Positions 2,256-64,000 of a DNA stretch of 64,000 nucleotides are shown one piece after another. Both the position numbers and the translations under genes were made by a program. This DNA is from a bacterium. Lineage in GTDB: Bacteria > Patescibacteriota > Minisyncoccia > Phycocordibacterales > UBA9973. The notes under the pieces are model-generated. The model was not told the origin of the DNA, made no database searches, and was given only the letters and a program-made list of their open reading frames with translations. Position 1 is the stretch's first letter. The number at the start of each line of letters is the position of its first letter. The DNA is taken from assembly GCA_021824345.1 (NCBI GenBank), contig JAKAKW010000002.1, forward strand, positions 86,552-150,551, given 5' to 3'.

Positions 2256-2282
2256 TAGCGTTAATAAGGGTATTGGCGCGCC

Positions 2283-13790: not shown

Positions 13791-13798
13791 GTGTTAGA

Positions 13799-14266: not shown

Positions 14267-14826
14267 ACAGAAAAAACGCGTGGAAAAATGAAAAATTGGC
14301 GGAAACGCTCTTGCAAGGAAAAATAGCGGTGATGCCCACCGATACTATTTACGGTATCGTGGCCAAAGCGGAAAATCGGGAAGCGGTGGAGCGCGTTTAT
14401 GCGGCAAGGGGAAGGGATAGCCGGAAGCCTTGCATAATTTTAATCGGCGAAGAAGAACAACTGGAAAAATTTTCGATAGCGCTGTCCGAAAAACAGAAAG
14501 CTGAATTGGGTAAATATTGGCCCGGACCGATCAGTATTGTTTTTAACTGCCCGGCGGAAAACCTGGAATACCTGCATCGGGGAACGAAAAGCCTGGCCTT
14601 CCGCCTACCGGCAAATTTAATGCTTCGCGAACTGCTTTTGAAAGCCGGTCCTCTTGTTGCGCCTTCGGCCAATACTGAAGGCGCGGCCCCCGCCCGCACC
14701 ATAGCGGAAGCCGAAAAATATTTCGGCGACTCGGTTGACTTTTATGCTGACGGCGGAACCTTGGAAGGCGCTCCGTCCCGGGTCGTAAAGTTGAACGCCG
14801 ACGGAAGAGCGGATATAATTAGATGA
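14263..14826 (+). CDS. tsaC: L-threonylcarbamoyladenylate synthase TsaC/YrdC
   Basis: PTDTIYGIVAKA, KPCIIL, WPGPISIVF, APSAN and YADGG motifs of the YrdC/Sua5 family. Confidence 0.75.
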   Translation: MNRKNAWKNEKLAETLLQGKIAVMPTDTIYGIVAKAENREAVERVYAARGRDSRKPCIILIGEEEQLEKFSIALSEKQKAELGKYWPGPISIVFNCPAENLEYLHRGTKSLAFRLPANLMLRELLLKAGPLVAPSANTEGAAPARTIAEAEKYFGDSVDFYADGGTLEGAPSRVVKLNADGRADIIR

Positions 14827-21208: not shown

Positions 21209-21902
21209 AGCCATTAAAACCGCGGTTTTTCGGGAAAATGAGGATTTGATCCGATTTATTTTGCGCTATGTGAAAAAGCTTCCGGAAAAATCCATTTTGG
21301 TTGTGACGTCCAAAATAATCGCTTTGTCCGAAGGCCGGACAGTGGAGCTTAAAGATGAAAAACAAAAGGCCAGGATAATCAAAAAAGAAAGCGAATTTGC
21401 AATAAAAACAAAGAGGGCCTGGCTGACAATCAAAGACGGGGCGGTTATGGCCTCCGCCGGCGTGGATGAATCCAACGCGGCTGGCAAATTGATTCTTCTG
21501 CCGAGGAACAGCTTTGTTTCCGCGGAAATGATCCGCAACGAGCTCATGAAAAAATTCAAAGTGCAAAAGCTCGGAGTGCTTGTGACCGACAGCCGGACTT
21601 TTCCATTGCGCGCCGGCATTGTGGGCATGGCCCTGGGCTACGCGGGGTTCAAAGGAATCCGCGATTACCGCGGAACTGGGGACATCTTCGGCAGGAAATT
21701 AAAAATGTCCAGAACCAACGTTGCCGATTCTCTTGCCGCTGCCGCAGTGCTTTGCATGGGAGAGGGGAAAGAGAGGCAGCCGCTTGCGATACTAGAAGAC
21801 GCTCCGGCGGTTTTCTCTCAAACAATAAATCCGAAAGAAATACTCATAAATCCGAAGATAGATTTGTATTTGCCATTTTTTAGGCGTATATTAAGGAAAT
21901 GA
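21198..21902 (+). CDS. CofE-like F420-0:gamma-glutamyl ligase-family protein
   Basis: VVTSKIIALSEGR...ASAGVDESNA...LLP...VLVTDSRTFPLRAGIVGMALGYAGF is typical of the CofE/F420_ligase family. The organism is unlikely to make F420. Confidence 0.5.
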   Translation: MQVKAIKTAVFRENEDLIRFILRYVKKLPEKSILVVTSKIIALSEGRTVELKDEKQKARIIKKESEFAIKTKRAWLTIKDGAVMASAGVDESNAAGKLILLPRNSFVSAEMIRNELMKKFKVQKLGVLVTDSRTFPLRAGIVGMALGYAGFKGIRDYRGTGDIFGRKLKMSRTNVADSLAAAAVLCMGEGKERQPLAILEDAPAVFSQTINPKEILINPKIDLYLPFFRRILRK

Positions 21903-22381
21903 AAAATGCTAGGCCGTCTTGGGACGAATATTTCTTGGGCATGGCGGATTATGTCGGCAGCCGGGGCACCTGCGATCGCGGGCGGAACGGATGCGTGATC
22001 GTTCGCGACAAAAGAGTGATTTCCACCGGATATGTTGGTTCTCCTCCCGGACTGCCGCATTGCGATGACGTCGGGCATGAAATGCATAAAGTGACAAACG
22101 AGGACGGCACCGATTCCATGCATTGCGTTCGCACGGCGCACGCGGAAATGAACGCCATTGCCCAGGCTGCGCGGTTCGGAGTTTCCGTCGGCGGGGGAAC
22201 CTTATATACCAAGATGACGCCCTGTTACACTTGCGCCAAAGCGATTATCACCGCCGGCATCAAGCGGGTGGTAAGCGAAAAAGATTATCATGCGAGTAAA
22301 AGAAGCAAGGAAATTTTAAAGGAAGCCGGAGTAGAGCTGGACATTATCAATAACGAAGTCGAGAAATACGACAATCAATAA
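21899..22381 (+). CDS. dCMP deaminase (cytidine/deoxycytidylate deaminase zinc-binding family)
   Basis: HAEMNAI and PCYTCAKAI zinc-ligand motifs, in a ComEB/dCMP deaminase-like arrangement. Confidence 0.75.
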   Translation: MKNARPSWDEYFLGMADYVGSRGTCDRGRNGCVIVRDKRVISTGYVGSPPGLPHCDDVGHEMHKVTNEDGTDSMHCVRTAHAEMNAIAQAARFGVSVGGGTLYTKMTPCYTCAKAIITAGIKRVVSEKDYHASKRSKEILKEAGVELDIINNEVEKYDNQ

Positions 22382-39304: not shown

Positions 39305-39523
39305 ATGAACATAAAAAAAGGAGACAATATAATAATTATCGCAGGCAAAGACCGGGGCAAAAAAGGAAAAGTGGCCCGGGCGCTTCCAAAGGAAAACAAG
39401 GTGATAGTGGAAGGCGTAAATTTGTATAAGAAGCACCGCCGAGCGAAAACAACCAACGATAAAGGATCGGTGAGCGAGATTCCCATGCCCATGCACGTTT
39501 CAAACGTGAAGAAAGTAGATTAA
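39305..39523 (+). CDS. rplX: Ribosomal protein L24
   Basis: KOW motif IKKGDNIIIIAGKDRGKKGKV. Confidence 0.9.
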   Translation: MNIKKGDNIIIIAGKDRGKKGKVARALPKENKVIVEGVNLYKKHRRAKTTNDKGSVSEIPMPMHVSNVKKVD

Positions 39524-40083
39524 TGCAAAAAGACATGAAACATTTATCTGTAAAAGAAAAAGAAGCGGAAGCCTTTGAAAAACTGAAGGGTGTTTTCCAT
39601 TACAAAGCGAAAATGTCCGCGCCAAAGGTGGTTAAAGTGGTGGTAAGCGTCGGAACCGGAACAAGACAGAAAGCGAACAAGGACACGAATGAATTTGTCA
39701 TCGGGCGGCTGGCCAAAATCACCGGCCAGCGCGGGGCATTGCGCGGAGCCAAAAAATCAGTGTCTTCTTTCAAAATAAGGCAGGGAGATTCCATCGGAGC
39801 GGTGGTCACTTTGCGCGGAAAAAGAATGTACTCTTTTCTGGAGAAGCTTCTGAATGTGGCTTTGCCCAGAACCAAGGACTTTCGCGGAATCAGCCGCAAG
39901 GCGGTGGATGACGTAGGCAACCTTACCATCGGAATTCGCGAACATACCATTTTTCCGGAAACCGCCGATGAAGATATCCGAGACGTATTCGGGCTGTCCG
40001 TAACTTTGGTCTCTACCGCTAAGGATAAAAAAGAGGGCCTGGCCTTCTTTGAACTTTTGGGCGTGCCATTCAAAAAAGAATAA
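39523..40083 (+). CDS. rplE: Ribosomal protein L5
   Basis: L5 core LAKITGQRGALRGAKKSVSSFKIRQGDSIGAVVTLRG. Confidence 0.95.
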   Translation: MQKDMKHLSVKEKEAEAFEKLKGVFHYKAKMSAPKVVKVVVSVGTGTRQKANKDTNEFVIGRLAKITGQRGALRGAKKSVSSFKIRQGDSIGAVVTLRGKRMYSFLEKLLNVALPRTKDFRGISRKAVDDVGNLTIGIREHTIFPETADEDIRDVFGLSVTLVSTAKDKKEGLAFFELLGVPFKKE

Positions 40084-40116
40084 TTTATTAAATGGTTTGA
40101 TTGAGGTATAATAGCT

Positions 40117-40542
40117 GTGTATACAGCGACCATGGATCCCAAACCATCTTTTGATCAAGAAATAAGCGAAGCTGTACAGCAGTTTGAGACAGAATCAACG
40201 GAAAAACCGGCGCCTTTCGGCAATGAAGGAGCAGAGGCTTCTTCATTGTACCCGCCTCATGCCTCTGTTTCTCAGTCTTCCATTGAAAAGCCTTCGGGCA
40301 TGATCGGGATGGTGATGAAACTCTCCAGCGGAACGGTGAAAACAAGAAAGCAGGCGAATGCGGCGATGTTGATATTCGTAGTTTTGTCGGCGGTTATAAC
40401 TTTGTTTTTACTAACCGGAGGCTTTGCGGGCAAGGCTCCAAACACGACGCCGATATATCAAGAAGATTTGACCCCTACAGCCAGGGCAACTATACCTGGA
40501 AGCGTGCTCAAAACAATACCTTACAAAAATGGGAATAAATGA
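40117..40542 (+). CDS. Hypothetical single-pass membrane protein (acidic/Ser-rich N-domain) preceding a pilin gene
   Basis: One TM helix (AAMLIFVVLSAVITLFLL). No known domain. Overlaps the pilin ORF by 14 nt. Confidence 0.35.
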   Translation: MYTATMDPKPSFDQEISEAVQQFETESTEKPAPFGNEGAEASSLYPPHASVSQSSIEKPSGMIGMVMKLSSGTVKTRKQANAAMLIFVVLSAVITLFLLTGGFAGKAPNTTPIYQEDLTPTARATIPGSVLKTIPYKNGNK

Positions 40543-41026
40543 TTCACAACTGGAAAGAGGTTTCACTCTAATAGAGCTTTTGGTTGTTATAGCAATAATA
40601 GGCGTTTTGGCTTCCGTGGTTCTTGCGAGTCTTACTTCTGCGAGGGAAAAGGCAAAAATAGCAAAGGCTCAATCTGAAATGCGGCAAGTAGTGCAAGCCA
40701 TTATCATAGCCCAAGGGGAACAAGGCAAGCCTCTTCTCGTATTTGCGCCGAATTCAAACTGCGGCCAATGTTATTGCGCTGACATAAATTCCACTTCGTG
40801 TAAAAATAATTGGGTGACCGCCTTGCAACAAATTCAGGACGCAACCAACGGACTGGTTACGGGGTTGACGGCAATGAAGTATGATCCATGGGGACATCCC
40901 TATCTTATTGACGCAAACCAATATGAAGGCGGGTCCAGCGCTTGTTTGAACGCCGATGGTTTTGGGGTATATGGCCAAGGCATACCCAATGCCCCTTCAA
41001 TTCCGCTCAGCCCGGTGTGTCCTTAA
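40529..41026 (+). CDS. Type IV pilin / pseudopilin with class-III (prepilin) signal peptide
   Basis: Leader MGINDSQLERG then FTLIELLVVIAIIGVLASVV (G-1, F+1, E+5 N-methylation motif). The C-terminal domain has Cys pairs. Confidence 0.75.
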   Translation: MGINDSQLERGFTLIELLVVIAIIGVLASVVLASLTSAREKAKIAKAQSEMRQVVQAIIIAQGEQGKPLLVFAPNSNCGQCYCADINSTSCKNNWVTALQQIQDATNGLVTGLTAMKYDPWGHPYLIDANQYEGGSSACLNADGFGVYGQGIPNAPSIPLSPVCP

Positions 41027-41172
41027 CAGCAAATTATCAAGAATCAATAAGAAGCGCCAACGCATCAGATACAGGCAAGTATCAGGTCGGCTACGGTTGG
41101 AGCCGCTCCGGCCGGGATTAGCAGGACGAATTAGCTGGGTGACCGGGGCGAGTTTGAACAATAGCCGTATTT

Positions 41173-41320
41173 GACTTTGCGGCATATTTTGCTAATATGG
41201 CATCCAAGGGAGCGATGCTCCGTTTAATCCGCTTTTCTCCTTTAATTTTCGCTTTCCGGGAGGGTTAAAGGAAAAAAGCGAGATATTGCGGAGCAAGCTT
41301 TCCTCTTTTTATCACGTACC
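41173..41320 (+). promoter_or_regulatory. Promoter TTGACT-16-TAATAT plus ~120-nt structured leader upstream of rpsZ
   Basis: The leader contains a 16-bp stem with one mismatch (cgcttttCtcctttaa / ttaaaggaaaaaagcg) and a smaller ggagcgatgctcc hairpin. Confidence 0.4.
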
Positions 41321-41321
41321 C

Positions 41322-41507
41322 ATGGCAAAAACATCGGTTATAGCCAGATCAAAAAAGAAGCCTAAATTTTCAACCCGGGCGAAAAACCGGTGTTTTCGCT
41401 GCGGCCGAGGCAAGGGATATATGCGGGATTTCGGACTGTGCCGAATATGTTTCCGGGAATATGCCAATGAGGGAAAGCTTCCCGGAGTAAGAAAGTCTTC
41501 GTGGTAA
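41322..41507 (+). CDS. rpsZ: Ribosomal protein S14 type Z (zinc-binding, 61 aa)
   Basis: [46 protein letters not shown] with the CxxC...CxxC zinc motif. Start at the internal ATG 41322. Confidence 0.85.
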
Positions 41508-41520
41508 CAAGAACAAAAAG

Positions 41521-41907
41521 ATGGATCCGATAGCAAACATGATAATAATGATAAAGAATGGGAACGCCGCCGGACAGGAGTCTGTGTTTTTGCCGTATTC
41601 AAAAATGAAAGCGGCCATAGCCGAATGCTTGAAGAAAGAGGGATACGTGGGCGAGGTTGCCAAAAAGACGAAAAAGAATCGTTCGGTGCTGGAAGTGAAG
41701 CTCGTGTATGAAGGCAAGATCCCCAAGATAACTCACGCGGAAAGAATTTCCAAACAGTCCAAGCGGGTGTATTTCGGCGTGAAGGAGCTTTATCCGGTAC
41801 GGGGAGGCAATGGCCTTCTGGTGCTTTCCACCCCCAAAGGAATTCTCGGAGGAAAAGATGCGCGCAAAGAGCATGTCGGAGGCGAAGCTCTTTTCAAGTT
41901 GTGGTAA
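41521..41907 (+). CDS. rpsH: Ribosomal protein S8
   Basis: MDPIANMIIMIKNGNAA S8 signature. Confidence 0.95.
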   Translation: MDPIANMIIMIKNGNAAGQESVFLPYSKMKAAIAECLKKEGYVGEVAKKTKKNRSVLEVKLVYEGKIPKITHAERISKQSKRVYFGVKELYPVRGGNGLLVLSTPKGILGGKDARKEHVGGEALFKLW

Positions 41908-41929
41908 GAAAAAACCAAAGCAAAAAAAT

Positions 41930-42463
41930 ATGTCAAGAATAGGAAAAAGAGAAATACCGATACCGACAGGAATAAAAATTTCCCAAGAGGGGACTTTCTT
42001 TACCGTGACCGGGCCGAAGGGATCCTTGAAAAAGTCTTTTCGCGACGATATAACCATAACCATTGGAGAAAAGGCCGTCTCTTTGAAAGCGAAGCGAAAT
42101 GACAAATTTTCCAAATCGCTGTGGGGAACGTATGCCGCCCATATCAAAAATATGATCAAGGGCGTGCAGGAGCCATATCAAAAGAAACTTATTTTGGAAG
42201 GAGTGGGATTCAAGTCGGAAGTGGCGGGAAAGGAAATGAAATTCGCTCTCGGGTTCTCTCATCCGGTAATCGTACCCATTCCCGAAGGCATTACCGCAGC
42301 CGCGGAAAAAAACAACATCACCATTACCGGCATTGACAAGGAGCTGGTGGGAAGCTTTGCCGCCGGCATCAGAGCTCTTAAAAAAGCTGAACCGTATAAA
42401 GGCAAAGGCATGAGGTATGAGGGTGAGGTCGTGAGAAGGAAGCAAGGCAAGAAGACGGCATAA
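41930..42463 (+). CDS. rplF: Ribosomal protein L6
   Basis: MSRIGKREIPIPTGIKI... two L6 repeats. Start at the internal ATG 41930. Confidence 0.9.
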   Translation: MSRIGKREIPIPTGIKISQEGTFFTVTGPKGSLKKSFRDDITITIGEKAVSLKAKRNDKFSKSLWGTYAAHIKNMIKGVQEPYQKKLILEGVGFKSEVAGKEMKFALGFSHPVIVPIPEGITAAAEKNNITITGIDKELVGSFAAGIRALKKAEPYKGKGMRYEGEVVRRKQGKKTA

Positions 42464-42467
42464 AATT

Positions 42468-42809
42468 ATGCAGAAAAAAGACGAAAAAAGAATACGCTTG
42501 AAAAGGAAGATTCGGTCCAAAATCCAGGGTACCGCGGGACATCCGCGCTTGTCCGTTTTTCGTTCCAACAAATTTATTTACGCTCAGGTAATAGACGATA
42601 CGGCCGGCAAAACCATTGCCGAAGCGAGCGACATAAAAATAAATGAGGGTACAAAGGTGGAGCGAGCGAAGAAGGTGGGCGCCATGATAGCGGAAAAATG
42701 CGTAAAGGCCGGAATAACCAAAGTGGTATTTGACCGGAACGGCTTCAAGTATGCCGGAAGGATTAAATTGGTAGCTGACTCGGCCAGAGGCGCCGGGCTT
42801 AAGTTTTAA
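42468..42809 (+). CDS. rplR: Ribosomal protein L18
   Basis: HPRLSVFRSNKFIYAQVIDD L18 signature. Confidence 0.9.
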   Translation: MQKKDEKRIRLKRKIRSKIQGTAGHPRLSVFRSNKFIYAQVIDDTAGKTIAEASDIKINEGTKVERAKKVGAMIAEKCVKAGITKVVFDRNGFKYAGRIKLVADSARGAGLKF

Positions 42810-42817
42810 TAAAAAAA

Positions 42818-43402
42818 ATGGAAGAGAAAGAAGAAAAAAAAGAAGAACGGGGAGAAAGAGGCAGGAGGAACGGCGGAAGATCCGATCGGGGCAGAATGGG
42901 CCGGCCGAAGCCGGAATTTGACCAGAAGATCCTGGATATACGCCGGGTTACCCGCGTGGTGGCCGGAGGCCGGAGGTTTTCTTTCAGCGTATACCTTGCC
43001 GCCGGAGACAGGCGCGGATCGGTCGGAGTCGGGCTTGGAAAGGCCGGAGACACGTCTCTTGCCATCAACAAAGCTCTTCGCAACGCGAAAAAGAACATGG
43101 TAACCTTGAAGCTCACCAAAACAATGTCTCTTCCTTACGAAATGAAAGCCAAATTCGGCAGCGCCAAAGTTGTGCTTATGCCGAACAAAGGGCGCGGTTT
43201 GGTGGCCGGCACGGTGGTGCGCGACATTGTAAATTTGGCCGGCATGAAGGACGTGACCAGCAAAGTGATTTCCAATTCAAAGAACAAGCTGAACAACGCC
43301 AAGGCGGTGATGAAAGCTCTCGCCCCCGTTTCCGTAAAATATGAGAAAAAATCTGCTCGTCCCGCCTCAAGGAGCGCGGAAAAGGAACAGGAAAGAAAAT
43401 AA
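42818..43402 (+). CDS. rpsE: Ribosomal protein S5 with Glu/Arg/Gly-rich N-terminal extension
   Basis: RRVTRVVAGGRRFSFSVYLAAGDRRGSVGVGLGKAGDTSLAINKA S5 core. Confidence 0.9.
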   Translation: MEEKEEKKEERGERGRRNGGRSDRGRMGRPKPEFDQKILDIRRVTRVVAGGRRFSFSVYLAAGDRRGSVGVGLGKAGDTSLAINKALRNAKKNMVTLKLTKTMSLPYEMKAKFGSAKVVLMPNKGRGLVAGTVVRDIVNLAGMKDVTSKVISNSKNKLNNAKAVMKALAPVSVKYEKKSARPASRSAEKEQERK

Positions 43403-43414
43403 TTTTTAACGATC

Positions 43415-43726
43415 ATGCAGATACACGAACTAAAAAGACAGCATAAAAACAAAAAGGACCGCATAGTGGGCCGGGGAGGCAAGCACGCCAAGCAATCCGG
43501 CCGCGGAGGCAAGGGCCAGACCGCCCGAGCCGGCAATAAACGCCGGCCGGAGCTGCGCGACATCATCAAGCGCTTGCCCAAGCGCCGAGGGTACAGGTTT
43601 CATTCCCGCCGGAAAGAAGTGATTATTAAAAAAGACGGTACGGGAACCGGAACGAGCAAGGCCGATTCTTTCTCCGCCATTCGCAAGCAAACCGGCCAGA
43701 AAGGGGGTAAAATAAAGTTTAAGTAA
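43415..43726 (+). CDS. rplO: Ribosomal protein L15 (short form, 103 aa). No L30 gene between rpsE and rplO.
   Basis: GRGGKHAKQSGRGGKGQTARAGNKRRP...KRLPKRRGYRF matches the L15 N-terminal core. The rpsE-rplO gap of 12 nt leaves no room for rpmD. Confidence 0.75.
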   Translation: MQIHELKRQHKNKKDRIVGRGGKHAKQSGRGGKGQTARAGNKRRPELRDIIKRLPKRRGYRFHSRRKEVIIKKDGTGTGTSKADSFSAIRKQTGQKGGKIKFK

Positions 43727-45611: not shown

Positions 45612-46139
45612 ATGCGAGAGTATAAACAGTCTACTATTGAAGTAATTATCACCGGCGGTACTATTGATTCTTATTACGAAGGAGCGAAAGATACCGCTGT
45701 ACCGTTGAAATTATCTTCCATTCCTCTCTTTTTCAAACTTATTAAACCAGAGGATAATGTATTTTTTAAAAAGGTTTGCATGAAAGACAGCCGGCAGTTG
45801 AATGGCAATGATTTAAAGAAAATACGTGAGGTTATTAATAAATCCAAATCAAAACTGTTTATTGTCACCCATGGAACGTATACCATGCCTGACACAGCCC
45901 GTTTTTTGGCAACAAACCTAAAAAGAAAAGATTGCACGGTTATTCTTACCGGCTCAATGATTCCGCTTACGGGATTTGCGCCCTCCGATGCTCCGTTTAA
46001 TTTAGGATATTCTTTTGCGATGGTCAAAACGCTTAAACCTGGGATATATGTGTGCATGAATGGAAGAATATTCGATCCAATGGAAGTAGCAAAAAGAATT
46101 TCTGCTGGAAAGTTTGTCTCGGTACTTGGTGAAAATTAG
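45612..46139 (+). CDS. Asparaginase-family protein, N-terminal catalytic domain only (175 aa)
   Basis: ITGGTIDS, FIVTHGTYTMPDTARFL, and LTGSMIPLTGFAPSDAPFNL resemble type I L-asparaginase / GatD N-domain motifs (TGGTIA, HGTDTM, GSMRP..SDGP). Confidence 0.55.
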   Translation: MREYKQSTIEVIITGGTIDSYYEGAKDTAVPLKLSSIPLFFKLIKPEDNVFFKKVCMKDSRQLNGNDLKKIREVINKSKSKLFIVTHGTYTMPDTARFLATNLKRKDCTVILTGSMIPLTGFAPSDAPFNLGYSFAMVKTLKPGIYVCMNGRIFDPMEVAKRISAGKFVSVLGEN

Positions 46140-46747
46140 CTTTTATCTTTTCGGTATTTCTCGATAACTTTCTCGATATCTTTTGTCACCTTAGGAATCG
46201 GCTGATTGCCGTTTATTTTTTTCATTTTACCGAGGCTTTCAAAATACTTTACAGTTTTGCTGACTTGTTTTTTGTGGTAGTCAATCCTGGCCTTTATTAT
46301 TTTGTCGTCATCCAACACTTTGTATATCGCTTTCATATTGCCGGCCTTCCGGGCTCGCGACCTGCGGTATACCTCCCTGTCCGGCAGGGTAATGTAAAAA
46401 GCAAAGAAGTCTTCCTTCTTAGACTCCATGATTTTCTTCAAAAGCTGGGCTTCCGGCTTGAGCCGGGGGTTGCCGATAAAAATCAAGTCTTTCCCTTTCG
46501 GTTTTTTGCCTATTTCATGCACTAAAAATTTTTTCATAAGTGCTACCGGCGCCGGTTTCCCTTGCCCGGTGGTTCTACGCACCCATGCTCCGTCTTGGCT
46601 TTTTTCTTTCATTAACTTGCGCCAATGTACCCCCGATTCTACCGGCCTAAGAGAATATTTTTTCATCAAAATATTTGCCTGGGTCTCCTTGCCAGAAGTA
46701 ATCATCCCCAGAAGCACGATATTGAACCCCAATCTCTCTTTTTTCAT
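46136..46747 (-). CDS. Divergent nucleoside-monophosphate (adenylate) kinase-family paralog
   Basis: P-loop variant GMITSGKETQ. NMP-kinase-like core with basic C-terminal tail. Start at internal ATG (MKKERLGFNIVLLG). Confidence 0.45.
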   Translation of the reverse strand: MKKERLGFNIVLLGMITSGKETQANILMKKYSLRPVESGVHWRKLMKEKSQDGAWVRRTTGQGKPAPVALMKKFLVHEIGKKPKGKDLIFIGNPRLKPEAQLLKKIMESKKEDFFAFYITLPDREVYRRSRARKAGNMKAIYKVLDDDKIIKARIDYHKKQVSKTVKYFESLGKMKKINGNQPIPKVTKDIEKVIEKYRKDKS

Positions 46748-46810
46748 GATGTGCCAATGATATATCAAATACCTTGATTTTTCAAGCTGTTTCTTGTATT
46801 CTAGAACCAT

Positions 46811-47398
46811 ATGCAACCGCAAACTTTCGTGTTTTTCGGCATCGTGGGGTCCGGAAAAGGGACCCAGGTAAAGCTTTTAACCGAATATCTTAAAAAGGAA
46901 GACAATAAAGAAACGGTCTACGCTTATCCCGGGGCTGAATACAGAAAGCTTATGGAAAGCGGAAGCTTTACCGCCACATTAATAAAAGATTCGATCAATC
47001 GCGGAGAACTCCAGCCAGACTTTTTGACCGATGCAATTTTCACCAACATTCTCACTGCCGAGCTTTCTCCCGAAAAGCACCTTATCGCCGACGGATATCC
47101 GCGGACAGTGAAGCAATCCGAAGTTTTTGAAAAGGCGATGAAGTTTTTCAAACGGGAAAATATTAAAATTATTTACATTGAATTGAGCAAGGATGAAGCG
47201 ATGAAACGGAACCTCTTGCGCGGCAGGGAAGACGATACCAAGGAGGGGCTGGAGAAGCGTTTTGACGAATACGTTAACAATGTGGTCCCGGCCATGGAAT
47301 ATTTGAAGGGCAAGCCCGGATATGAAGCTTTTTCCATAAACGGGGAGCAGAGCATAGAAAACGTGCATAAGGATATAGTCAAAGCCCTGGGATTTTAA
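46811..47398 (+). CDS. adk: Adenylate kinase
   Basis: GIVGSGKGTQ P-loop, ADGYPRT, and LID region RGREDD. Confidence 0.85.
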   Translation: MQPQTFVFFGIVGSGKGTQVKLLTEYLKKEDNKETVYAYPGAEYRKLMESGSFTATLIKDSINRGELQPDFLTDAIFTNILTAELSPEKHLIADGYPRTVKQSEVFEKAMKFFKRENIKIIYIELSKDEAMKRNLLRGREDDTKEGLEKRFDEYVNNVVPAMEYLKGKPGYEAFSINGEQSIENVHKDIVKALGF

Positions 47399-49059: not shown

Positions 49060-51831
49060 ATGGAAGAACTGTCCCTGAAAGAAATGCCTAAATTCAAGAC
49101 TCCGGAAGAGGAGCTCTCGTATCTGCGCGCTCAAGTGGCGAACAGAGAGAAAGCGCTAATAAATAGCGGGCACTTTGAACACGCAAACGAAAATGCCGCC
49201 CAAGACGTGCTTTCCGAATACAAGAAAATTCCGCTTGAAAAGGCGGTGCACAAAGACAGCGCCATTTCCAAGGAAGAAAAAGAAAACATCGTACTTTCGC
49301 TCAAGCCTGAAGCGCACGACTCCGTGATGGAGGAATTGCTCGGAGTAGTTTTGGAGAAAGGCATAAAAAACGCGCTTTCCGTGGTGGAAGCCATGAACAA
49401 TCCGCACATAGACGATGATTTTCATCGCGTGCTGATCCAATATTTAAAGACCGGCAATATTCCTTTTCCTTTCAAAGAGGGGGCTCCGCTGTACAAAGCT
49501 CTGCATATGACCTTATTTGAAATCACCTTGCCTCCTCCGGAAGATGAAGGCGGAAAAGAAAAGGGATTCAAGGAATTCATCGGCGCCATGGAGCAATTTT
49601 ATGCGGGTATGGCTTCCATTTCTCAGGGAAAAAACAACGAGTTTGGAAACTATTTCGTTCTGGAGGTGGCGCTCTCCGGCGACAGCGACGAGGTGGTGGT
49701 ATATGCCGCCGTACCGGACCAATTTCTTTCACTTTTTGAAAAACAGATTCTCGCTTACTATCACGCCGCCAAAGTGCGCGAAGTGAAAGACGATTACAAT
49801 ATTTTCAACGAGAAAGGAGTGGCGGTCGGCGCTTACGCGGAGCTTACCGAGAAAGCGGTCATGCCGCTTAAGACCTACGACAACATTGAACACGATCCCA
49901 TGAACACCATTCTGAACGTTTTTTCCAAGCTGGCCACTGTAGGCGAAGGCGCGGCTATCCAGATCGCGGTGGCTCCGGCCGGAGAGAAATACATAAACGA
50001 GTTCCATAAAATTTTAGACGACGTTAAAGGGGGCATGTCCGTGAAGCATGCCAACGACAATTTGTACAAATTCAACAAAGCTTTCCTTCGCATCTCGAAG
50101 GAAATTGTTTTTGGAACAAAGAATAATGAAAATGCCGGCGAAAACAAGGAATTGAGCGCTCCGGGCAGGAGAGCGGTAGACGAAGGAGCTGCGGAAAAGA
50201 TCGGGAACAAAATGAAATCCAGCATCATGAAGGCGAACATAAGAGTGCTGGCTTCCGCCCCCACCGAAATGCGCGCCAACTCCATCCTGCAGGAAATAGA
50301 ATCATCCTTTAACCAGTTCGCCGAGCCGGCCAGTAATTCCTTGTATTTCCGAAAATGTTCCGGCGGAAAGCTCAAACAGCTTTTTCATGATTTTTCCTAC
50401 CGCACGTTTTCAAAGGATGAGGCCCTTCCGTTAAACCTCAAAGAACTTTCTTCCATTTTTCATTTTCCGGTGGGTGTTGGGGCCATGCCCCAGCTTCGAG
50501 AGGCCAGATCCGGCATCGCTCCCGCTCCGATCCAAATGGGCAAGGAGGGCATACTGCTTGGCATAAACAGCTATCGGGGCAAAGACACGGAAGTGCGCAT
50601 GGGCAAGGAAGACCGCATGCGGCATTTCTATGTGATCGGACAAACCGGCACCGGAAAAACGAACGTGATGCTGAATATGATTACCCAAGATATAAAGAAC
50701 GGAGACGGAGTGTGCTATATAGACCCGCATGGCACGGACATCCAGACTATTCTCTCGCGCATTCCGAAGGAGCGGGTGGACGACGTGATCTACTTTGATC
50801 CTAGCTATATTGCCCGGCCCATGGGCTTGAACATGCTTGAGTATGATCCGAAATATCCCGAGCAGAAAACTTTCGTGGTGAACGAAATGATGAACATCTT
50901 TAACAAGCTTTTTGACATGAAAGTGGGAGGAGGACCTATGTTCGAGCAGTATTTCCGAAACTCGGCGTTTCTGGTGATGGAAGACCCCGATTCTGGTTCC
51001 ACTTTGCTTGAAATTACCCGTGTCTTGGCGGATAAGGATTTTCGGGATATGAAACTGGAACGCTGCAAGAATCCGATCATCAAGCAGTTCTGGGTTTCCG
51101 CTGAGCAGACCACCGGAGACCAATCTTTGGCCAACTTTGTTCCATATATTTCATCTAAGTTTGACAACTTCATTTCCAACGACATCATGCGTCCGGTGGT
51201 GCTTCAGCAAAATTCCGTTTTTAACTTTCGTAAAATAATGGACGAAAAAAAGATTCTCCTGGTGAATCTTTCAAAAGGGCGCTTGGGAGAGATAAACTCA
51301 AATTTGATCGGGCTGGTGCTGGCCGGCAAAATCCAGATGGCGGCCCTGTCCCGGGTGGACATGTTCGGCCAGAAGATGAACGACTTCTATCTTTATATTG
51401 ACGAATTCCAGAATGTTACCACCGATTCCATTTCCTCTATCCTTTCAGAGGCGCGGAAATACCGCCTGTCTCTTAATATCGCCCACCAGTACATAAATCA
51501 GCTGGAAGAGGGGATAAAGAACGCGGTATTTGGAAACGTCGGATCTATGGCGGTATTCCGAGTAGGCGCCGAGGATGCCCAATTCCTTGAACCGAAGTTC
51601 AAGCCGACTTTCAGCGCCCGCGACATCACCCGGTTGGAAAACTACAACGCTTACATGAATATGTTGATAAACGGAGAGCCTTCCAAGCCATTCAATATGA
51701 AGACTCTTCCGCCGGAAAAGGGCAATTCGGAGATAGTGCAGAGCCTAAAGGAGCTTTCGTACATGAAATACGGCCGGGATAGGGAAGAAGTGGAAAAAGA
51801 AATTATGGCCCGATACGAGTCAGCTCAGTAA
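49060..51831 (+). CDS. VirD4/TraG/TraD-like type IV coupling-protein ATPase fused to a ~500-aa N-terminal region of unknown function
   Basis: C-terminal half has Walker A GQTGTGKT, a CYIDPHGTD (DPKG-like) motif, and Walker B LYIDEFQN, typical of the TraG-D_C/T4SS-DNA-transfer family. The N-terminal half has no recognisable motif. Confidence 0.6.
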   Translation: MEELSLKEMPKFKTPEEELSYLRAQVANREKALINSGHFEHANENAAQDVLSEYKKIPLEKAVHKDSAISKEEKENIVLSLKPEAHDSVMEELLGVVLEKGIKNALSVVEAMNNPHIDDDFHRVLIQYLKTGNIPFPFKEGAPLYKALHMTLFEITLPPPEDEGGKEKGFKEFIGAMEQFYAGMASISQGKNNEFGNYFVLEVALSGDSDEVVVYAAVPDQFLSLFEKQILAYYHAAKVREVKDDYNIFNEKGVAVGAYAELTEKAVMPLKTYDNIEHDPMNTILNVFSKLATVGEGAAIQIAVAPAGEKYINEFHKILDDVKGGMSVKHANDNLYKFNKAFLRISKEIVFGTKNNENAGENKELSAPGRRAVDEGAAEKIGNKMKSSIMKANIRVLASAPTEMRANSILQEIESSFNQFAEPASNSLYFRKCSGGKLKQLFHDFSYRTFSKDEALPLNLKELSSIFHFPVGVGAMPQLREARSGIAPAPIQMGKEGILLGINSYRGKDTEVRMGKEDRMRHFYVIGQTGTGKTNVMLNMITQDIKNGDGVCYIDPHGTDIQTILSRIPKERVDDVIYFDPSYIARPMGLNMLEYDPKYPEQKTFVVNEMMNIFNKLFDMKVGGGPMFEQYFRNSAFLVMEDPDSGSTLLEITRVLADKDFRDMKLERCKNPIIKQFWVSAEQTTGDQSLANFVPYISSKFDNFISNDIMRPVVLQQNSVFNFRKIMDEKKILLVNLSKGRLGEINSNLIGLVLAGKIQMAALSRVDMFGQKMNDFYLYIDEFQNVTTDSISSILSEARKYRLSLNIAHQYINQLEEGIKNAVFGNVGSMAVFRVGAEDAQFLEPKFKPTFSARDITRLENYNAYMNMLINGEPSKPFNMKTLPPEKGNSEIVQSLKELSYMKYGRDREEVEKEIMARYESAQ

Positions 51832-57699: not shown

Positions 57700-57786
57700 G
57701 AGCTGTACATTAAAATTCCCTCAAAGGGGAATTAGTATTGCCAAGTCTAGCGTATTTGGGAAGGAAAGTCAATTGTAATAAAATCA

Positions 57787-58184
57787 TGTGGAGATGGGGG
57801 AAATCGAATCCCCGTGCAAGAGGCTGCGGAAGGAAGGTCTACATGCTTAGCGCGCTTTTTGATTTGAGCCGGCGGATTCTTAAGCGAGCCAAATATCCGC
57901 GAGCCGATTCCTTAAGGTTTGGAGAGAGACCAGGAAAAATCTCTTCCTATCCCGATAATGTTACACCTCGCCCAATCTATCGGAAGTTGAAAGGGGAGAC
58001 GCCGGCGTTCTTAAGCGAAAGCCGGAGCGAAAGCGAAGTCCTTCGCACCGAAGTACGGAGAGACCATTGCCATCACCTTGGAAGTCAATTTTGCAATTAA
58101 CTGTTTGGGCGAAGTTTTGCGAGTTTACGCCCATTCTCGGCATGCATTCGGGCCGCCGGCCTATTGTCTATGCCTGGCATCCCC
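57787..58184 (-). ncRNA. ssrA: tmRNA (SsrA), ~398 nt, adjacent to smpB
   Basis: 5' end GGGGAUG and 3' end GGGGAUUCGAUUUCCCCCAUCUCC-A-CA form a tRNA-Ala-like acceptor stem with G3:U wobble and T-arm. An internal reading frame reads GCG AAG GAC UUC GCU UUC GCU CCG GCU UUC GCU UAA (tag (A)KDFAFAPAFA), stop near plus coordinate 58008. Confidence 0.7.
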
Positions 58185-58362: not shown

Positions 58363-58809
58363 TCAATAATCTTTCAAGGTTCTGCGAAGCTCCCGCTCGG
58401 TTTCCCGCTTCTTTATAGTCTCGCGCTTGTCGCGCTTCTTTTTTCCGCGCACCACGGCCATCCCGAGTTTGATCTTCTTGCCTTTATTATACACTGCCAA
58501 AGGCACTATTGTCAAACTTTTGTCCTTTTCGCCGGAGGCCAATTCCATAATCTCTTTCCTGGTGAGAAGAAGCTTTCGGTTGCGCAGAGGATCATAATCG
58601 GCCCCGGCGTTTTTCGGCTGGAAAGGAGTAATGTTCGCGTTTATCAGAAACGCCTCGCCTCCGCGGACAATGACGAAAGAGCCGTCCAGGGACATTTTGC
58701 CCTCGCGGACAGATTTCGCTTCCATGCCTGAGAGCTCAATACCCGCCTCGTATTTATCAAGCATCTCGTATTCAAAGCGCGCTTTTCTGTTTTCCGCATA
58801 ATTTGCCAT
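58363..58809 (-). CDS. smpB: SsrA-binding protein SmpB
   Basis: MANYAENRKARFEYEMLDKYEAGIELSGMEAKSVREGKMSLDGSFV SmpB signature. Confidence 0.9.
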   Translation of the reverse strand: MANYAENRKARFEYEMLDKYEAGIELSGMEAKSVREGKMSLDGSFVIVRGGEAFLINANITPFQPKNAGADYDPLRNRKLLLTRKEIMELASGEKDKSLTIVPLAVYNKGKKIKLGMAVVRGKKKRDKRETIKKRETERELRRTLKDY

Positions 58810-58988: not shown

Positions 58989-61900
58989 ATGGATTTCAAT
59001 CTTAGAAACAGCCAGGAGCCGAAAATGAAAGGAAAAAAACCTCCGGAAAGAGGTCCTGGTTTTGCTGGCAGCATCGCCTCGGTGATTCTTATCTTTATGA
59101 TAATCACCGCCATATATCTTTTGATTTCGGACGCTTCCCAGCCGGTTCCCGCCATTCCCATTTCCCAGGTTGCGGAAGATGTTTCTTCCGGCGCGGTGCA
59201 AAAGATAGAAGTGCAGGGGAACGATCTTACGGTCACTTACAAGGACAAGGAAGTGAAAAAATCAAAGAAAGAGACGGAAACTTCCTTAACCGACACTCTG
59301 TCAAACTACGGAGTGAGCAAGCAGGTGCTTGACGCCACCGAGATAGACATTCAAGAACCGGACGGATTCGGGTACTGGGCGATAAACATTCTGCCGTATC
59401 TTCTGCCCATTATCTTCATCGTGATTTTCTTCTGGTACATTTCCCGGCAGGTTAAAGGGGCCGGCATGCAGGCGTTCACCTTCGGCCAGTCCAAGGCGCG
59501 CATTACCGATCCTTCCGACAAGAACAATCGCATCACTTTCAAAGACGTGGCCGGATGCAAAGAAGCGAAAGAAGAACTGAAGGAAATTGTGGATTTTTTG
59601 AAAAACCCCAAAAAGTTCCTGGATATCGGAGCGCGCATACCCAAAGGAGTGATTCTTACGGGAGCGCCCGGAACCGGCAAGTGCGTCAATGGCGATACAT
59701 TGATACAAACATCCAAAGGCCTTGTTGCAATAGAAGATGTGCCGAAATACTTTTCAGTAAATTCAGATAATACAGTGGAAGGGTTAAGAGTGATAACTAT
59801 TGACCCGAAGAACGGGACTTTAAAAACCACGGATGCTTCGCATTGGTATTCTTTAGGGGAGCAAGAAACTGTTGCCATAAAGACGGAATCGGGAATGTTT
59901 TTGGAAGGTACGCCGGAACACCCTATCATCGTAGTTGATAAAGATACAGGCCATTTTGTTTTCAAAAAATTAGCTGATATAACAACCGACGACTGGTGCG
60001 TGGTGGGCTCCCGGACGGAGGTATTCGGAACGCATACAAAAATTCCAGGCCCGGAAACCGCTTATATACTTGGTGTTTTGACGGGTGACGGATGCATGAC
60101 CATTAAAGGCAGAATAGTTCTTTCCACTATTGATAAAGAGATTTTGAGCCGGGTGCAAGATAATGTTAAGAGATTGTTCGGCGAGGAGTTTTCAAAAATT
60201 TCCGCCCATAAATGCGATTATCAGCTTTCAAATAGCAAGGCAAAGAATGCGTTATTGTCTTTTGGACTTTCAGAAACATACGCGAAAAATAAGAGGATTC
60301 TTGAGTGGGTTCGTTTTGCTCCCAAAGAGCACATAAGCAATTTCCTGCAAGGATTGTTTGATACCGATGGCACGGTTGAAAAGAGCGGAAGCGTAAGTTT
60401 GTCCAGCGCCAGCGAACACTTAATAAGAGAAGTGCAATTTATGCTTCTTAATCTCGGCATAGTGACCAGAAGGTATGAGCGCCAGAAGAAATACAACAAT
60501 CAACTCCAATACTACATTGTTATTTATGGAGATTTTGTGCAGTCTTTTCAGAACCAAATAGGGTTTTCAGTTGTCAGGAAAAAAGAAAGATTGGAAAAAA
60601 TTTGCCTCAAACAGCGAAATACAAATGTAAATGTCATACCTTCGCAAGGCAAGTCTATTCACATGGTCTGGAAACAGGCGGTAGCCACCTCAGGAATGGT
60701 TTTTAATAGGGAATTTTATAATCAATCTATTTATAAAAATTTCAAACGATACGTTTCGGGAGAACGGATGCCTTCCCTTAAAGGGATGTCAATATTTCTC
60801 GAAGGAACATCTCGCATTTCACCGTATATAAACGAAATGCCCGAGGTGGCGCATTTGAAAAGCTTGTCTTCCGGTAATTTTTTCTTTAGTAAAATTGATT
60901 CCATTAGCCGAGGCAGGAACAAAGTATATGATCTTACTGTACCGGTAACCCATAATTTTTTGGCCAATGGATTTTTTAATCATAACACCATGCTGGCCAG
61001 GGCCATCGCGGGCGAAGCGAGCGTGCCCTTCTACCATCTTTCCGGTTCGGAATTCGTGGAAATGTTCGTGGGCGTGGGCGCCAGCCGGGTGCGGGATCTT
61101 TTCCGGGTGGCCAAGAAATCCGCTCCGGCCATAATATTCATTGATGAAATTGACGCCATCGGCAGAACCCGCGGAGGGGGATTCGGAGGAAGCAATGACG
61201 AACGCGAGCAGACCTTGAACCAAATTCTGGTGGAAATGGACGGCTTCGAGCCGAACGAGAAGCTGATCGTGATTGCGGCCACCAACCGGCCGGATGTTCT
61301 TGACCCTGCCTTAATACGTCCCGGACGCTTTGACCGCAAAGTGGTGCTGGATCTTCCGGATCGCAACGACCGCGAAGAAATTCTGAAAATTCACGCCCAG
61401 AAAAAGCCCTTGGCGGAAGATGTGAATCTGCATCTTGTCGCCGAGCGTACCCCGGGCTTTTCCGGCGCCGATCTTTACTCTTTAATGAATGAAGGCGCCA
61501 TTCTGGCCGCCCGGGAAAACCGCAAAAAAGTGTTCCAATTTGACCTGATCCGGGCGATTGAAAAAGTAATGCTGGGTCCGGAACGCAAAAGCCACCTGCT
61601 TTCCAAGAAAGAAAAAGAAATTACCGCCTATCATGAAGCCGGGCACGCTATCGTGGCCTCGGTATTGCCTCACGCGGATCCGGTGCACAAAGTTTCCATA
61701 ATCGCCCGCGGACGCGCCGGGGGATATACGCTTAAGCTTCCTCTGGAAGAACGTCGATTGCAATCTCGGAAAGAATTCATTGACGATATCGCCATGTCGC
61801 TCGGAGGATATGCCGCGGAAAAAATGATGTTTGGGGATATTACTACCGGACCGTCCAGCGATCTGCAGATGGCCACGAACCTAGCCCGGGCCATGGTCAC

Positions 61901-62219
61901 TCGCTTCGGCATGTCCGACAGCATCGGCCCGGTCACCTGGGCGGAAGGAGAAGGAAAGCCGGGCTGGGGAGAACTTCGGGAAGATTCCCGTTCGGAAAGC
62001 GTGGCCGCGAAGATTGACGATGAAGTTTCCAGAATCGTGAATGATGGCATAAAAACGGCGCAAAAAGTGCTGAAGGATCACAAGAAAGCCTTCACTGCCA
62101 TTGCCAAGAAGCTTATCGAAGTGGAAACTTTGGAACGGGACGAATATGAAAAAATTCTCATCGCCCACGGCATAGAGCTGAAAAAGAAGGACGAGCCGGA
62201 GGTGGTCATAGAAGGCTAA
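58989..62219 (+). CDS. ftsH: ATP-dependent zinc metalloprotease FtsH, interrupted in-frame by a 435-aa intein within the Walker A motif
   Basis: Two TM helices and periplasmic domain. [12 protein letters not shown] then intein then [18 protein letters not shown]+ second region of homology. HEAGHAIV zinc motif. Start at ATG 58989 (the ORF track begins upstream in the leader). Confidence 0.85.
59682..60986 (+). mobile_element. Intein with LAGLIDADG homing-endonuclease domain inserted between Lys and Thr of the FtsH P-loop (GPPGTGK | T)
   Basis: Begins CVNGDTLI (block A, Cys1). TPEH (block B). Two LAGLIDADG motifs ([24 protein letters not shown]). Ends [21 protein letters not shown] followed by +1 Thr. 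Insert is AT-richer than flanking ftsH. Confidence 0.8.
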
Positions 62220-62351
62220 AAATATCATGGCAAAGCGTGAACTAAAAAAATTGCGATAGAGCTGAGACTTGCCGGACATAGCTACAGCCAGATCAGAGGA
62301 CAAGTAAAAGTAAGTAAAAGCACTTTAAGCTATTGGCTTGCGGATTATCCG

Positions 62352-62888
62352 TTGTCGGAAGAAAGAATAAGAAAACTCAGAGATAATAGTCCCATTAGAA
62401 TTGAGCACTACATAAATACCATGCGGGCAAAACGTGAAGCAAGGTTTGCTTCCGCCTATTCTGAAATTTCAAAAGTTTTAAAAAAGTTTTCTAAGAGAGA
62501 AATAATCATAGCAGGATTCTTTTTGTACTGGGCTGAAGGCAATAAGACAAGAAATGCTTCTTTCGGCCTTACTAATACCGATCCAAATATGTTGAAATTC
62601 TATATTAGATGGATGGAACTTTTAGGCGTAAAGAAAAGCCAGATGAAAGTGCACTTGCATCTTTATTCAGATATGAACATAGAAAAACAGAAAAAATTTT
62701 GGTCCGACACGCTTTCCATTCCTCTTTCTCAATTTCGAAAACCTTATATAAAAAATACCTGTTCTAGCTCCATAACTTATAAAAATGGATTTGGCCAAGG
62801 AACTTGTTCTGTCCTTGTGGAAGGCGCAAGGCTATCCGAAAAAATACTGATGGGAGTAAAATATGTGCAAGAAAATTCATTAATTTAA
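62352..62888 (+). CDS. AT-rich hypothetical protein, probably the downstream part of a frameshifted HTH-domain gene beginning at ATG 62227
   Basis: ORF starts at TTG. The same frame upstream reads IAIELRLAGHSYSQIRGQVKVSKSTLSYWL (helix-turn-helix) but has no ATG. An ATG at 62227 (MAKRELKK) joins this frame by a -1 shift in an A7 run at 62244..62250. Confidence 0.4.
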   Translation: MSEERIRKLRDNSPIRIEHYINTMRAKREARFASAYSEISKVLKKFSKREIIIAGFFLYWAEGNKTRNASFGLTNTDPNMLKFYIRWMELLGVKKSQMKVHLHLYSDMNIEKQKKFWSDTLSIPLSQFRKPYIKNTCSSSITYKNGFGQGTCSVLVEGARLSEKILMGVKYVQENSLI

Positions 62889-62949: not shown

Positions 62950-63023
62950 CCGCCCGTAGCTCAGTTGGTAGAGCAAGCGACTTATACTCGCTGTTAGCCT
63001 TGGTTCGAGTCCAAGCGGGCGGA
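62950..63023 (+). tRNA. tRNA with anticodon TAT (UAU; isoleucine-AUA-decoding type), C1:G72 acceptor, 3' A-CA
   Basis: Manual fold. Acceptor ccgcccg/cgggcgg. U8 A9. D-arm gctc-agttggta-gagc. Anticodon stem agcga/tcgct with loop cTTATAc (U33, A37). T-arm cttgg-ttcgagt-ccaag. 6-nt variable region. Confidence 0.6.
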
Positions 63024-63026
63024 CAA

Positions 63027-64000
63027 TCATTCAAAATGAAACTCCTTGGTTTTTTCTTCGGCGATTTTGCGGAGCAGGGGATGGCTTGAAAGCCCTTGAT
63101 CTTCGCCGATCAGCCGGACTGCTTCGGTTCTGGCCGCTTCCACCATCTTTAGATTTTTGATCGCTTCCATAGCAAGGTCCGAAACGCCCCATTGCTTTCC
63201 GCCGGAAAGTTCTCCGGCTCCGCGCAGGGACAGGTCCATTTCCGCCAGTTCGAATCCGCTTTTCGCGCTTTTTAGGGCGCGCAACCGGCTCATTGTCTTG
63301 TCCGATTTCGCTTCCGCGAATACGTAGCAGTACGCCTGATGGGTACTGCGCAAAACCCTTCCGCGCAATTGGTGCAATTGAGCCAGCCCGAAGCGTTCCG
63401 CTCCCTCAATGATTATCACCGTGGCGTTCGGAACGTTTACGCCCACTTCCACCACTGAAGTGGCGCAAAGAATGCGCAGTCGGCCTTCGGCAAAATCTTT
63501 CATCACTTCCTCTTTCTTCTGCTTGCCCATCTTGCTGTGCAATACTCCGATTTCATATTCCGGAAAGACTTCTTTTTTCAAACGCTTCGCTTCGGCTACG
63601 GCCGATTTCGCTTGCAAAGCCAGCTCCTTCGCCGGATCAGGCTCGAATATGCGCGGGCAGATGACGTAGGCTTGCCGGCCGGCCGAGAGTTCCTTGCGCA
63701 CTTTTTCATAGATGTTCTCCCGCTTGTCCGGCGATACGATTTCGGTGATGATTTCCTTCCGGCCGGCCGGCATCTCATCCAAGAGCGTCAGATCCAAATC
63801 TCCGTAAATGGTGAGGGCCAGGGTCCGGGGAATGGGAGTGGCGGTCATGGAAAGCAAGTGCGGAGCGGTTCCGTCTTTGCGCACCAGCTTGCGGCGCTGG
63901 GCCGTGCCGAAACGGTGCTGCTCGTCTATCACCGCAAAGGCCAGATTTTTAAACTTTACCGATTTTTGAATGAGGGCGTGAGTGCCGATGAGTATGGGAA
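63027..64000 (-). CDS. recG: ATP-dependent DNA helicase RecG, C-terminal portion (gene continues past window end)
   Basis: IIDEQHRFG (DExH box), SMTATPIPRTL, and helicase C-terminal motifs HQLRGRVLR. The reading frame stays open to coordinate 64000. Confidence 0.8.
   Translation of the reverse strand, partial: PILIGTHALIQKSVKFKNLAFAVIDEQHRFGTAQRRKLVRKDGTAPHLLSMTATPIPRTLALTIYGDLDLTLLDEMPAGRKEIITEIVSPDKRENIYEKVRKELSAGRQAYVICPRIFEPDPAKELALQAKSAVAEAKRLKKEVFPEYEIGVLHSKMGKQKKEEVMKDFAEGRLRILCATSVVEVGVNVPNATVIIIEGAERFGLAQLHQLRGRVLRSTHQAYCYVFAEAKSDKTMSRLRALKSAKSGFELAEMDLSLRGAGELSGGKQWGVSDLAMEAIKNLKMVEAARTEAVRLIGEDQGLSSHPLLRKIAEEKTKEFHFE

Follow-up and report, generated by a model that had tools for sequence, protein, structure and literature searches.

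The 64,000 nucleotides of DNA that we analysed (the whole stretch, which we call the window) carry a gene for a tRNA-Ile whose UAU anticodon is written in the genome. Our reading, to which we would give a probability of roughly 0.8, is that this is a functional AUA-decoding tRNA-Ile of a Patescibacteria/CPR bacterium, that it belongs to a conserved family, and that, with U34 encoded, AUA is read without the lysidine step. The prevailing view is that reading AUA depends on TilS and lysidine in almost all bacteria, an encoded tRNA-Ile(UAU) being a rare exception. Because almost all bacteria are held to need lysidine, TilS is treated as an essential, near-universal marker and as a possible drug target. 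An earlier reading of this DNA, made from the sequence without database searches (the sequence-only reading), had likewise described UAU tRNA-Ile as rare and as confined to a few lineages. As an account of the literature this stands (PMC3575796; a 2026 preprint, bioRxiv 10.64898/2026.02.03.703510, refers to encoded UAU as "rare cases"), but our genome scan qualifies it: many Patescibacteria/CPR lineages share the conserved tRNA, and phage-borne tRNA(UAU) genes are common.

The gene is 74 nt long and lies at 62950..63023 on the forward (+) strand. The sequence-only reading had placed a canonical cloverleaf there, starting with a C1:G72 pair and with UAU as the anticodon, and all of this held up. 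ARAGORN calls tRNA-Ile(tat) at 62950-63024, in agreement with the anticodon that we read from the sequence. Rfam RF00005 matches 62950-63023 with 63.3 bits (E 2.2e-11; the gathering score is 29) and zero non-standard pairs, and folding the 74 nt by minimum free energy gives this cloverleaf too (-29.8 kcal/mol, z -2.4). Read from the sequence, the acceptor stem is CCGCCCG/CGGGCGG, which includes C1-G72, and is followed by U8 and A9. The D stem is GCUC/GAGC, with A14, G18 and G19 in its loop (AGUUGGUA) and A26 after the arm. The anticodon stem, AGCGA/UCGCU, closes the loop C32 U33 U34 A35 U36 A37 C38 at 62981..62987 (+), with the anticodon at 62983-62985. The T stem is CUUGG/CCAAG, its loop is UUCGAGU, and the discriminator is A73. 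The conserved tRNA positions U8, A14, G18 G19, U33, U54 U55 C56 (encoded as TTC) and A58 are all present. CCA is not encoded, as the bases after A73 are CAATC.

The cloverleaf and the paired 1-72, where bacterial initiators carry a C1xA72 mismatch, mark this as a canonical elongator tRNA. The one odd feature of the window copy is a variable loop of 6 nt (GUUAGC), as compared to 5 nt in all 31 of the other distinct family members. The tRNA is not an assembly artefact, because four independent Logan assemblies and the ENA contig ERZ27237563 k141_888175 all have exactly this sequence. The only other tRNAs that ARAGORN finds within the window are Leu(GAG) and His(GUG). We also looked for the nearest isoacceptor by running blastn against E. 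coli genomes, and we set the results aside as uninformative: the generic D and T arms accounted for the matches (to Phe, Val, and Thr tRNAs).

To see the family, we scanned one genome per species (about 186,000 species) with a pattern made from the D arm and the anticodon arm of the window tRNA. The same tRNA is carried at 45 loci, in as many species genomes, and the true number is at least this high, as a match had to have 31 exact bases. Most of these genomes (38 of 45) have CPR names, namely Paceibacterota, Nomura-, Taylor-, Adler-, Zambryski-, Yanofsky-, and Woesebacteria, "Parcubacteria/Patescibacteria group", and Saccharibacteria; the other 7 share the same gene neighbours. ARAGORN calls tRNA-Ile(tat) at 44 of the 45 loci, and the remaining one is cut by the end of its contig. 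The conservation of UAU across the 45 loci is by construction, since the pattern required TAT, and only a counter-scan with CAT and the synteny, both of which we discuss below, bear on the anticodon.

The 32 distinct sequences of the family align without ambiguity, and their stems are intact: every one of 672 stem cells has a standard pair, and at 13 of the 21 stem pairs both sides have changed in a compensatory way. The covariation score is 0.55, versus 0.137 for shuffled alignments and at most 0.13 for slid controls. The variation all falls in pairs that the search pattern left free, namely those of the acceptor stem, the T stem, and the outer anticodon stem. The structure of the tRNA is under strong selection, and its orthologs keep that structure through compensatory substitutions. 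For example, pair 1-72 is GC in 20 sequences, CG in 9, AU in 2, and GU in 1, and it is never unpaired. The C1-G72 pair that the sequence-only reading had remarked on is simply a flipped G-C pair, which marks a subfamily of 9 of the 32 distinct sequences, including that of the window. Three features are conserved even though the pattern did not impose them: A73 (32/32), C4-G69 (30/32), and C38 (31/32). The pattern itself specified U12-A23 and C29-G41, so the conservation of both within the family is imposed. The near-invariant C38 is a signature of the family.

The position of the gene is conserved as well. In nearly all of the 45 loci, the order is (tmRNA/smpB), ftsH, an optional open reading frame, the tRNA-Ile(UAU) gene in the same direction, and then recG, which converges on it. 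In the window, ftsH is at 58989..62219 (+) and encodes 1,076 amino acids, including an intein (NCBIfam FtsH plus intein; Intein_splicing and LAGLIDADG_3). The 3' part of recG occupies 63027..64000 (-) and runs past the end of the window (NCBIfam RecG, 735 amino acids in full), and its stop codon is 3 nt past the 3' end of the tRNA. The tRNA starts 61 nt past the remnant of an open reading frame that follows ftsH. At loci without an intervening reading frame, the gap from the ftsH stop codon to the tRNA is 28-160 nt. Given this gap, and given that the linkage is conserved in relatives, we think that co-transcription of ftsH and the tRNA is probable. Across the loci, FtsH proteins are 58-86% identical. 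A tRNA that holds one slot between two core genes in lineages that have diverged this far is not a recent mutant, nor was it brought in by a mobile element.

The host appears to be closest to Paceibacterota/"Nomurabacteria". By FtsH identity (84-86%), the nearest loci come from metagenome-assembled genomes of Paceibacterota, Nomurabacteria, and Parcubacteria, and proteins related to those of the window carry the names Candidatus Paceibacterota or Nomurabacteria. The window corresponds to positions 29392-93391 of the ENA metagenome contig mentioned above, which is 103.9 kb long, and it carries chromosomal housekeeping genes: nusG-L11, S12-S7-EF-G, EF-Tu, the S10-spc-secY block, infC-L35-L20, tmRNA, smpB, ftsH, and recG. 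In a tblastn search of PLSDB, the best identity for EF-G was 60%, which shows that this collection contains no CPR replicon. No Pfam match to L30 was found in the spc operon, and a lack of L30 is in line with CPR bacteria.

Several other features of the region are worth recording in their own right. The spc operon (39523-43726, +) is atypical. Between L5 and S8 (40117-41026) it has two non-ribosomal reading frames, one of 141 amino acids and one of 165 amino acids, the latter with a prepilin N_methyl motif; there is no Pfam match for S14; and a reading frame of 103 amino acids that belongs to no family lies between S5 and secY. Two genes of the adenylate kinase family (224 and 195 amino acids, 46136-47398) lie head to head, and their starts overlap. 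A protein of 923 amino acids (49060-51831, +) has a DUF8128 domain and a faint signature of a TraD/VirD4-type coupling-protein ATPase, and it lies among housekeeping genes. The stretch at 357-4010 (+) and some 6 kb of the contig upstream of it (L269, 1-9956) form a tandem array of six codirectional, paralog-sized genes (about 527-595 amino acids) with no Pfam family except for a faint treble-clef zinc finger. The tmRNA (Rfam, 112.5 bits) adjoins smpB (57786-58184, -, and 58363-58809, -), and many relatives keep the two next to ftsH; ARAGORN calls the tmRNA in relatives and not in the window. The FtsH intein is about 435 amino acids long, covers roughly residues 277-713 of the long reading frame, and has a LAGLIDADG_3 endonuclease domain. 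It is absent from most relatives, and one locus (L152) appears to have one too. Finally, a few relatives have other tRNA genes in a small cluster with tRNA-Ile(UAU): L136 (1099-2854) has Val(GAC), Leu(GAG), Val(UAC), Phe, and Gly, L159 (5788-5943) has Val(UAC), and L152 (3711-3871) has Arg(CCU).

The sequence-only reading had pointed to the AUA codon frequency as a way to check its proposal, and AUA turns out to be a major codon. By crude gene calls, there are 23 AUA codons per 1,000 codons in the window, or 34% of the Ile codons, and AUA is common also in the genes for ribosomal proteins and elongation factors. We aligned 20-22 conserved translation proteins with their orthologs from two distant bacteria, E. 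coli and Acetoanaerobium. The aligned codons include 83-93 AUA, 101-111 AUU, and 90-100 AUC. The residues opposite AUA are I, V, or L in 81-86% of cases and M in 2-5%, which is the same as for AUU and AUC; opposite AUG, M accounts for 42-44%. These alignments indicate both that AUA means Ile and that AUA is not avoided in highly expressed genes. Judging by these sequences, AUA is read as an ordinary Ile codon. In the ftsH and recG genes of 44 relatives, the median share of AUA among Ile codons is 29% (range 2-61%). This share is uncorrelated with GC content (r = -0.10) and reaches 30-50% at 55-60% GC. Codon usage is also what suggests that tRNA-Ile(UAU) is the principal decoder of AUA.

How would such a tRNA be charged? 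According to Nureki et al. in 1994, the E. coli IleRS reportedly recognises A73, C4-G69, U12-A23, C29-G41, A35, U36, A37 (as t6A), and A38. The window tRNA has A73, C4-G69, U12-A23, C29-G41, A35, U36, and A37, and it departs from the E. coli set at position 38, which is C. With these Ile identity elements, the covariation, and the alignment of AUA to I, V, or L, the proposal of the sequence-only reading that this is an AUA-decoding variant of tRNA-Ile is supported. As for the modification of A37, t6A37 has an established role in tRNA-Ile, and the window encodes tsaE (13733-14266, +; Pfam TsaE) and, overlapping it, sua5/tsaC (14263-14826, +; Pfam Sua5_yciO_yrdC). TsaE and TsaC would presumably modify A37 of tRNA-Ile(UAU) and of the other tRNAs that read ANN codons. 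In Mycoplasma mobile, tRNA-Ile2(UAU) does carry t6A37 (PMC3575796).

We can sketch the likely life of the tRNA from these elements. It would be transcribed with ftsH or just behind it, RNase P would process it, CCA would be added enzymatically, and TsaE/TsaC would convert A37 to t6A. To judge from the identity elements, IleRS would charge it via A73, C4-G69, U12-A23, C29-G41, A35, U36, and t6A37. Because U34 is encoded, AUA would then be read by a U34:A3 pair without a TilS step. Misreading of AUG by U:G wobble might be limited, by analogy with M. mobile, through discrimination by the ribosome and competition from tRNA-Met. The C32/C38 loop might also help to limit it; this is speculation, and we mention the loop as a candidate tuning element. 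We infer the aminoacylation, the modification state of U34, and the discrimination against AUG alike.

The best precedent is M. mobile, which decodes AUA independently of TilS with a tRNA-Ile2(UAU) (Taniguchi et al. 2013, PMC3575796). As of 2013, nine species in three clades were known to have no tilS, and some other bacteria had both systems (PMC3575796). Like the M. mobile tRNA, ours is a chromosomal elongator tRNA-Ile with a UAU anticodon, with A37 available for t6A, and from a host with a small genome. The differences are that M. mobile is a single species of Tenericutes, whereas the tRNA that we describe is found in many families of Patescibacteria, and that the near-invariant C38 and the fixed position behind ftsH are features of the CPR tRNA and not of the one from M. 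mobile. Also, for M. mobile the state of U34, the adaptation of IleRS (R865-type or type-2), the loss of tilS, and the discrimination against AUG by the ribosome (together with competition from tRNA-Met) have been demonstrated (PMC3575796), whereas here the CPR system is known from sequence. A TilS-independent system of the M. mobile type would be expected to have neither tilS nor a tRNA-Ile2(CAU) gene, an unmodified U34 on a ribosome that rejects AUG, and an IleRS that either has Arg or Lys at the position of E. coli W905 or is of the type-2, "eukaryote-like" kind. Bifidobacterium and Neorickettsia, which lack tilS and have tRNA-Ile(TAT) and a eukaryote-type IleRS (PMC3575796), may offer a parallel for the replacement of lysidine in a whole lineage, with the likeness to CPR being in the tRNA.

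The canonical tRNA-Ile2 (CAU, with C34 converted to lysidine) also reads AUA as Ile and shares A73, C4-G69, U12-A23, C29-G41, and A37 with the window tRNA. In contrast to it, the window tRNA has U34 rather than C34, and thus neither a TilS step nor a switch between Met and Ile identity, and it has C38 rather than A38; AUA is a major codon here and a rare one there. The anticodon arm of E. coli ileX, which we take to be ...GCGA CU.AUA. UCGC..., is like that of the window tRNA. An encoded UAU that is dedicated to AUA also occurs in eukaryotic cytoplasmic tRNA-Ile (UAU, modified to pseudoU-A-pseudoU) and in some archaeal tRNA-Ile(UAU), but those belong to other domains of life and rely on pseudouridine or on other modifications of U34. 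Bacterial tRNA-Ile(UAU) and the M. mobile type of decoding were known, and what stands out here is the conservation across CPR lineages, the fixed locus linked to ftsH, the C38 signature, and the use of AUA regardless of GC content.

The alternative that survives best is that the genome also has tilS and a tRNA-Ile2 with CAU converted to lysidine, and that the UAU tRNA is a second reader of AUA, as in Lactobacillus casei and L. plantarum, Cyanothece, and Ferrimonas. We consider this close to an even bet. Bacteria with both systems certainly exist, L. casei being one of them (PMC3575796), and it is about 79 kb of this genome that has been inspected. TilS (TIGR02432) is treated as a near-universal marker of bacteria. 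On the other side, precomputed Pfam annotation shows neither TilS (PF01171) nor IleRS in those 79 kb of the contig. The tilS gene adjoins ftsH in many other bacteria, and we found no PP-loop reading frame with SGGxDS in the window or within up to 8 kb at the loci of the 45 relatives, including the position beside ftsH. Heavy use of AUA regardless of GC content would also be unusual for a codon that is read by a minor lysidine tRNA. And there is a parallel for decoding without a wobble modification: CPR bacteria are reported to have no tRNA-Arg(ACG), and instead of that modification system they use tRNAs with GCG, UCG, and CCG anticodons (PMC8629427). Our literature search found no paper that links lysidine, TilS, or AUA decoding to CPR, Patescibacteria, Saccharibacteria, or Parcubacteria. 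All in all, we lean slightly against the idea that tilS is absent from the genome.

The counter-scan was aimed at the CAU counterpart itself: in 241 million metagenome records, we looked for this backbone carrying CAT in place of TAT. It returned 87 contigs that fall into a few unrelated families. One family has GGCGGUG... acceptors and A38 or U38, comes mostly from DNA with 50-74% GC, and in some cases lies beside nusG-L11; another consists of typical tRNA-Ile2-like genes (GGCCCUA...CCA). As the scan recovers ordinary CAU tRNAs, it has a positive control. None of the 87 contigs has C38 or an acceptor stem of the family's type, and none has its tRNA between ftsH and recG. A lysidine-type (CAU) version of the CPR tRNA was thus not found in this metagenome collection, and a diverged paralog would escape the scan. 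One of the hits, from an unrelated organism, shows the canonical lysidine arrangement (L191; ERZ778018.38, 295 kb, GC 40%): its tRNA(CAU) has the same anticodon stem, AGCGA/UCGCU, with a tRNA-Ile2-like acceptor, and about 1 kb away is a TilS-like PP-loop reading frame (…LGFSGGVDSLALAYFL…).

The sequence-only reading had held that if tilS and tRNA-Ile2(CAU) were present, then the UAU tRNA might be a pseudo- or suppressor-like tRNA. We think that this argument is unsound: the covariation, the synteny, and the heavy use of AUA imply a functional tRNA either way. A separate observation concerns a 160-amino-acid protein of the cytidine/dCMP deaminase family (21899-22381, +), which could be TadA or a nucleotide deaminase and is of interest given the reports that CPR bacteria have no tRNA-Arg(ACG).

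Could the tRNA have come from a phage or another mobile element, imported with a prophage or with the endonuclease-like gene beside it to supplement the decoding of AUA? Genes for tRNA(UAU) occur in more than 120 viral contigs, where they share the anticodon and the generic sequences of the D and T arms, and a reading frame that resembles a homing endonuclease abuts the tRNA. We nevertheless find this very unlikely. The phage genes sit in tRNA arrays, and of 120 of them 88% have A38 or U38 and 12% have C38, versus C38 in 31 of 32 members of the CPR family. None of the viral contigs has the CPR signature sequence, and the sole one that matched our specific pattern (L174) is a phage tRNA array whose tRNA has A38 and a different acceptor stem. 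The slot of the CPR tRNA is between the core genes ftsH and recG, the surrounding 79 kb contain no phage genes, and the tRNA is present whether or not the endonuclease-like reading frame is.

That reading frame is present at 15 of the 45 loci and absent from the other 30. In the window it is a free-standing remnant at 62227..62888 (+): it begins with ATG at 62227, meets a stop codon after the run of A at 62245-62250, and continues in the frame of 62352-62888. The frameshift at the run of A is identical in five assemblies. The frame 62352-62888 has 233 homologs (at our loci, in L124, L125, L130, L135, L142, L143, L147, L156-L161, and L166), most of which are about 220 amino acids long, and the full-length ones have an N-terminal helix-turn-helix domain (HTH_23). 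A profile of the homologs matches the LAGLIDADG endonuclease I-DmoI weakly (E about 1e-4), and an AF2 model (pLDDT 83) has no significant neighbour in the PDB. In 8 of the 15 loci that have it, its stop codon is the UAG of tRNA positions 8-10. We considered whether it might encode a dedicated partner that modifies the tRNA, and we rejected this idea, as it is sporadic (15/45), is truncated by a frameshift in the window, and has a helix-turn-helix domain and an I-DmoI-like profile. Going by its sequence and distribution, it is probably a selfish element that inserted at the 5' edge of the tRNA, is decaying in the window, and stands outside the decoding function.

Two other explanations can be dismissed. 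The tRNA might be a pseudogene, a decayed tRNA, or a suppressor-like mutant (from a recent C34->U or G34->U change) with no stable function. The 6-nt variable loop of the window copy is odd, and B. subtilis does acquire G34->U in tRNA-Ile1 when TilS fails (PMC3575796, PMC3919564), but compensatory changes throughout the family with zero broken pairs, fixed synteny across lineages as distant as their FtsH proteins imply, and an identical sequence in five independent assemblies make this extremely unlikely. It is just as improbable that AUA has been reassigned to Met (as in many mitochondria) or to another amino acid, with a synthetase other than IleRS: codes have changed in CPR bacteria (UGA in Gracilibacteria and Absconditabacteria, CGA/CGG in Absconditabacteria; PMC8629427) and C38 deviates from the E. 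coli identity set, but AUA aligns with I, V, or L and hardly with Met, indistinguishably from AUU and AUC, and the remaining Ile identity elements are present and conserved.

If tilS is present alongside it, then the functional, AUA-decoding tRNA-Ile(UAU) that we favour would be a well-supported but ordinary redundant isoacceptor. If tilS is absent, then the trend towards modification-poor decoding that the lack of an inosine-type tRNA-Arg shows in CPR bacteria would extend further, estimates of genome completeness from marker genes would be affected, and these bacteria would be a natural model for how U34 avoids AUG. We tentatively propose, although we would sooner bet against it than for it, that much of the Patescibacteria/CPR radiation now uses an encoded tRNA-Ile(UAU) in place of the lysidine system (TilS plus tRNA-Ile2 with CAU), that the C32/C38 loop and possibly changes in the ribosome prevent the misreading of AUG, and that this has freed AUA to become a major codon independently of GC content. 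If so, this would be by far the largest bacterial clade without lysidine. In any case, the conserved tRNA-Ile(UAU) together with the heavy and GC-independent use of AUA suggests that a sizeable branch of the bacteria handles the problem of telling AUA from AUG differently.
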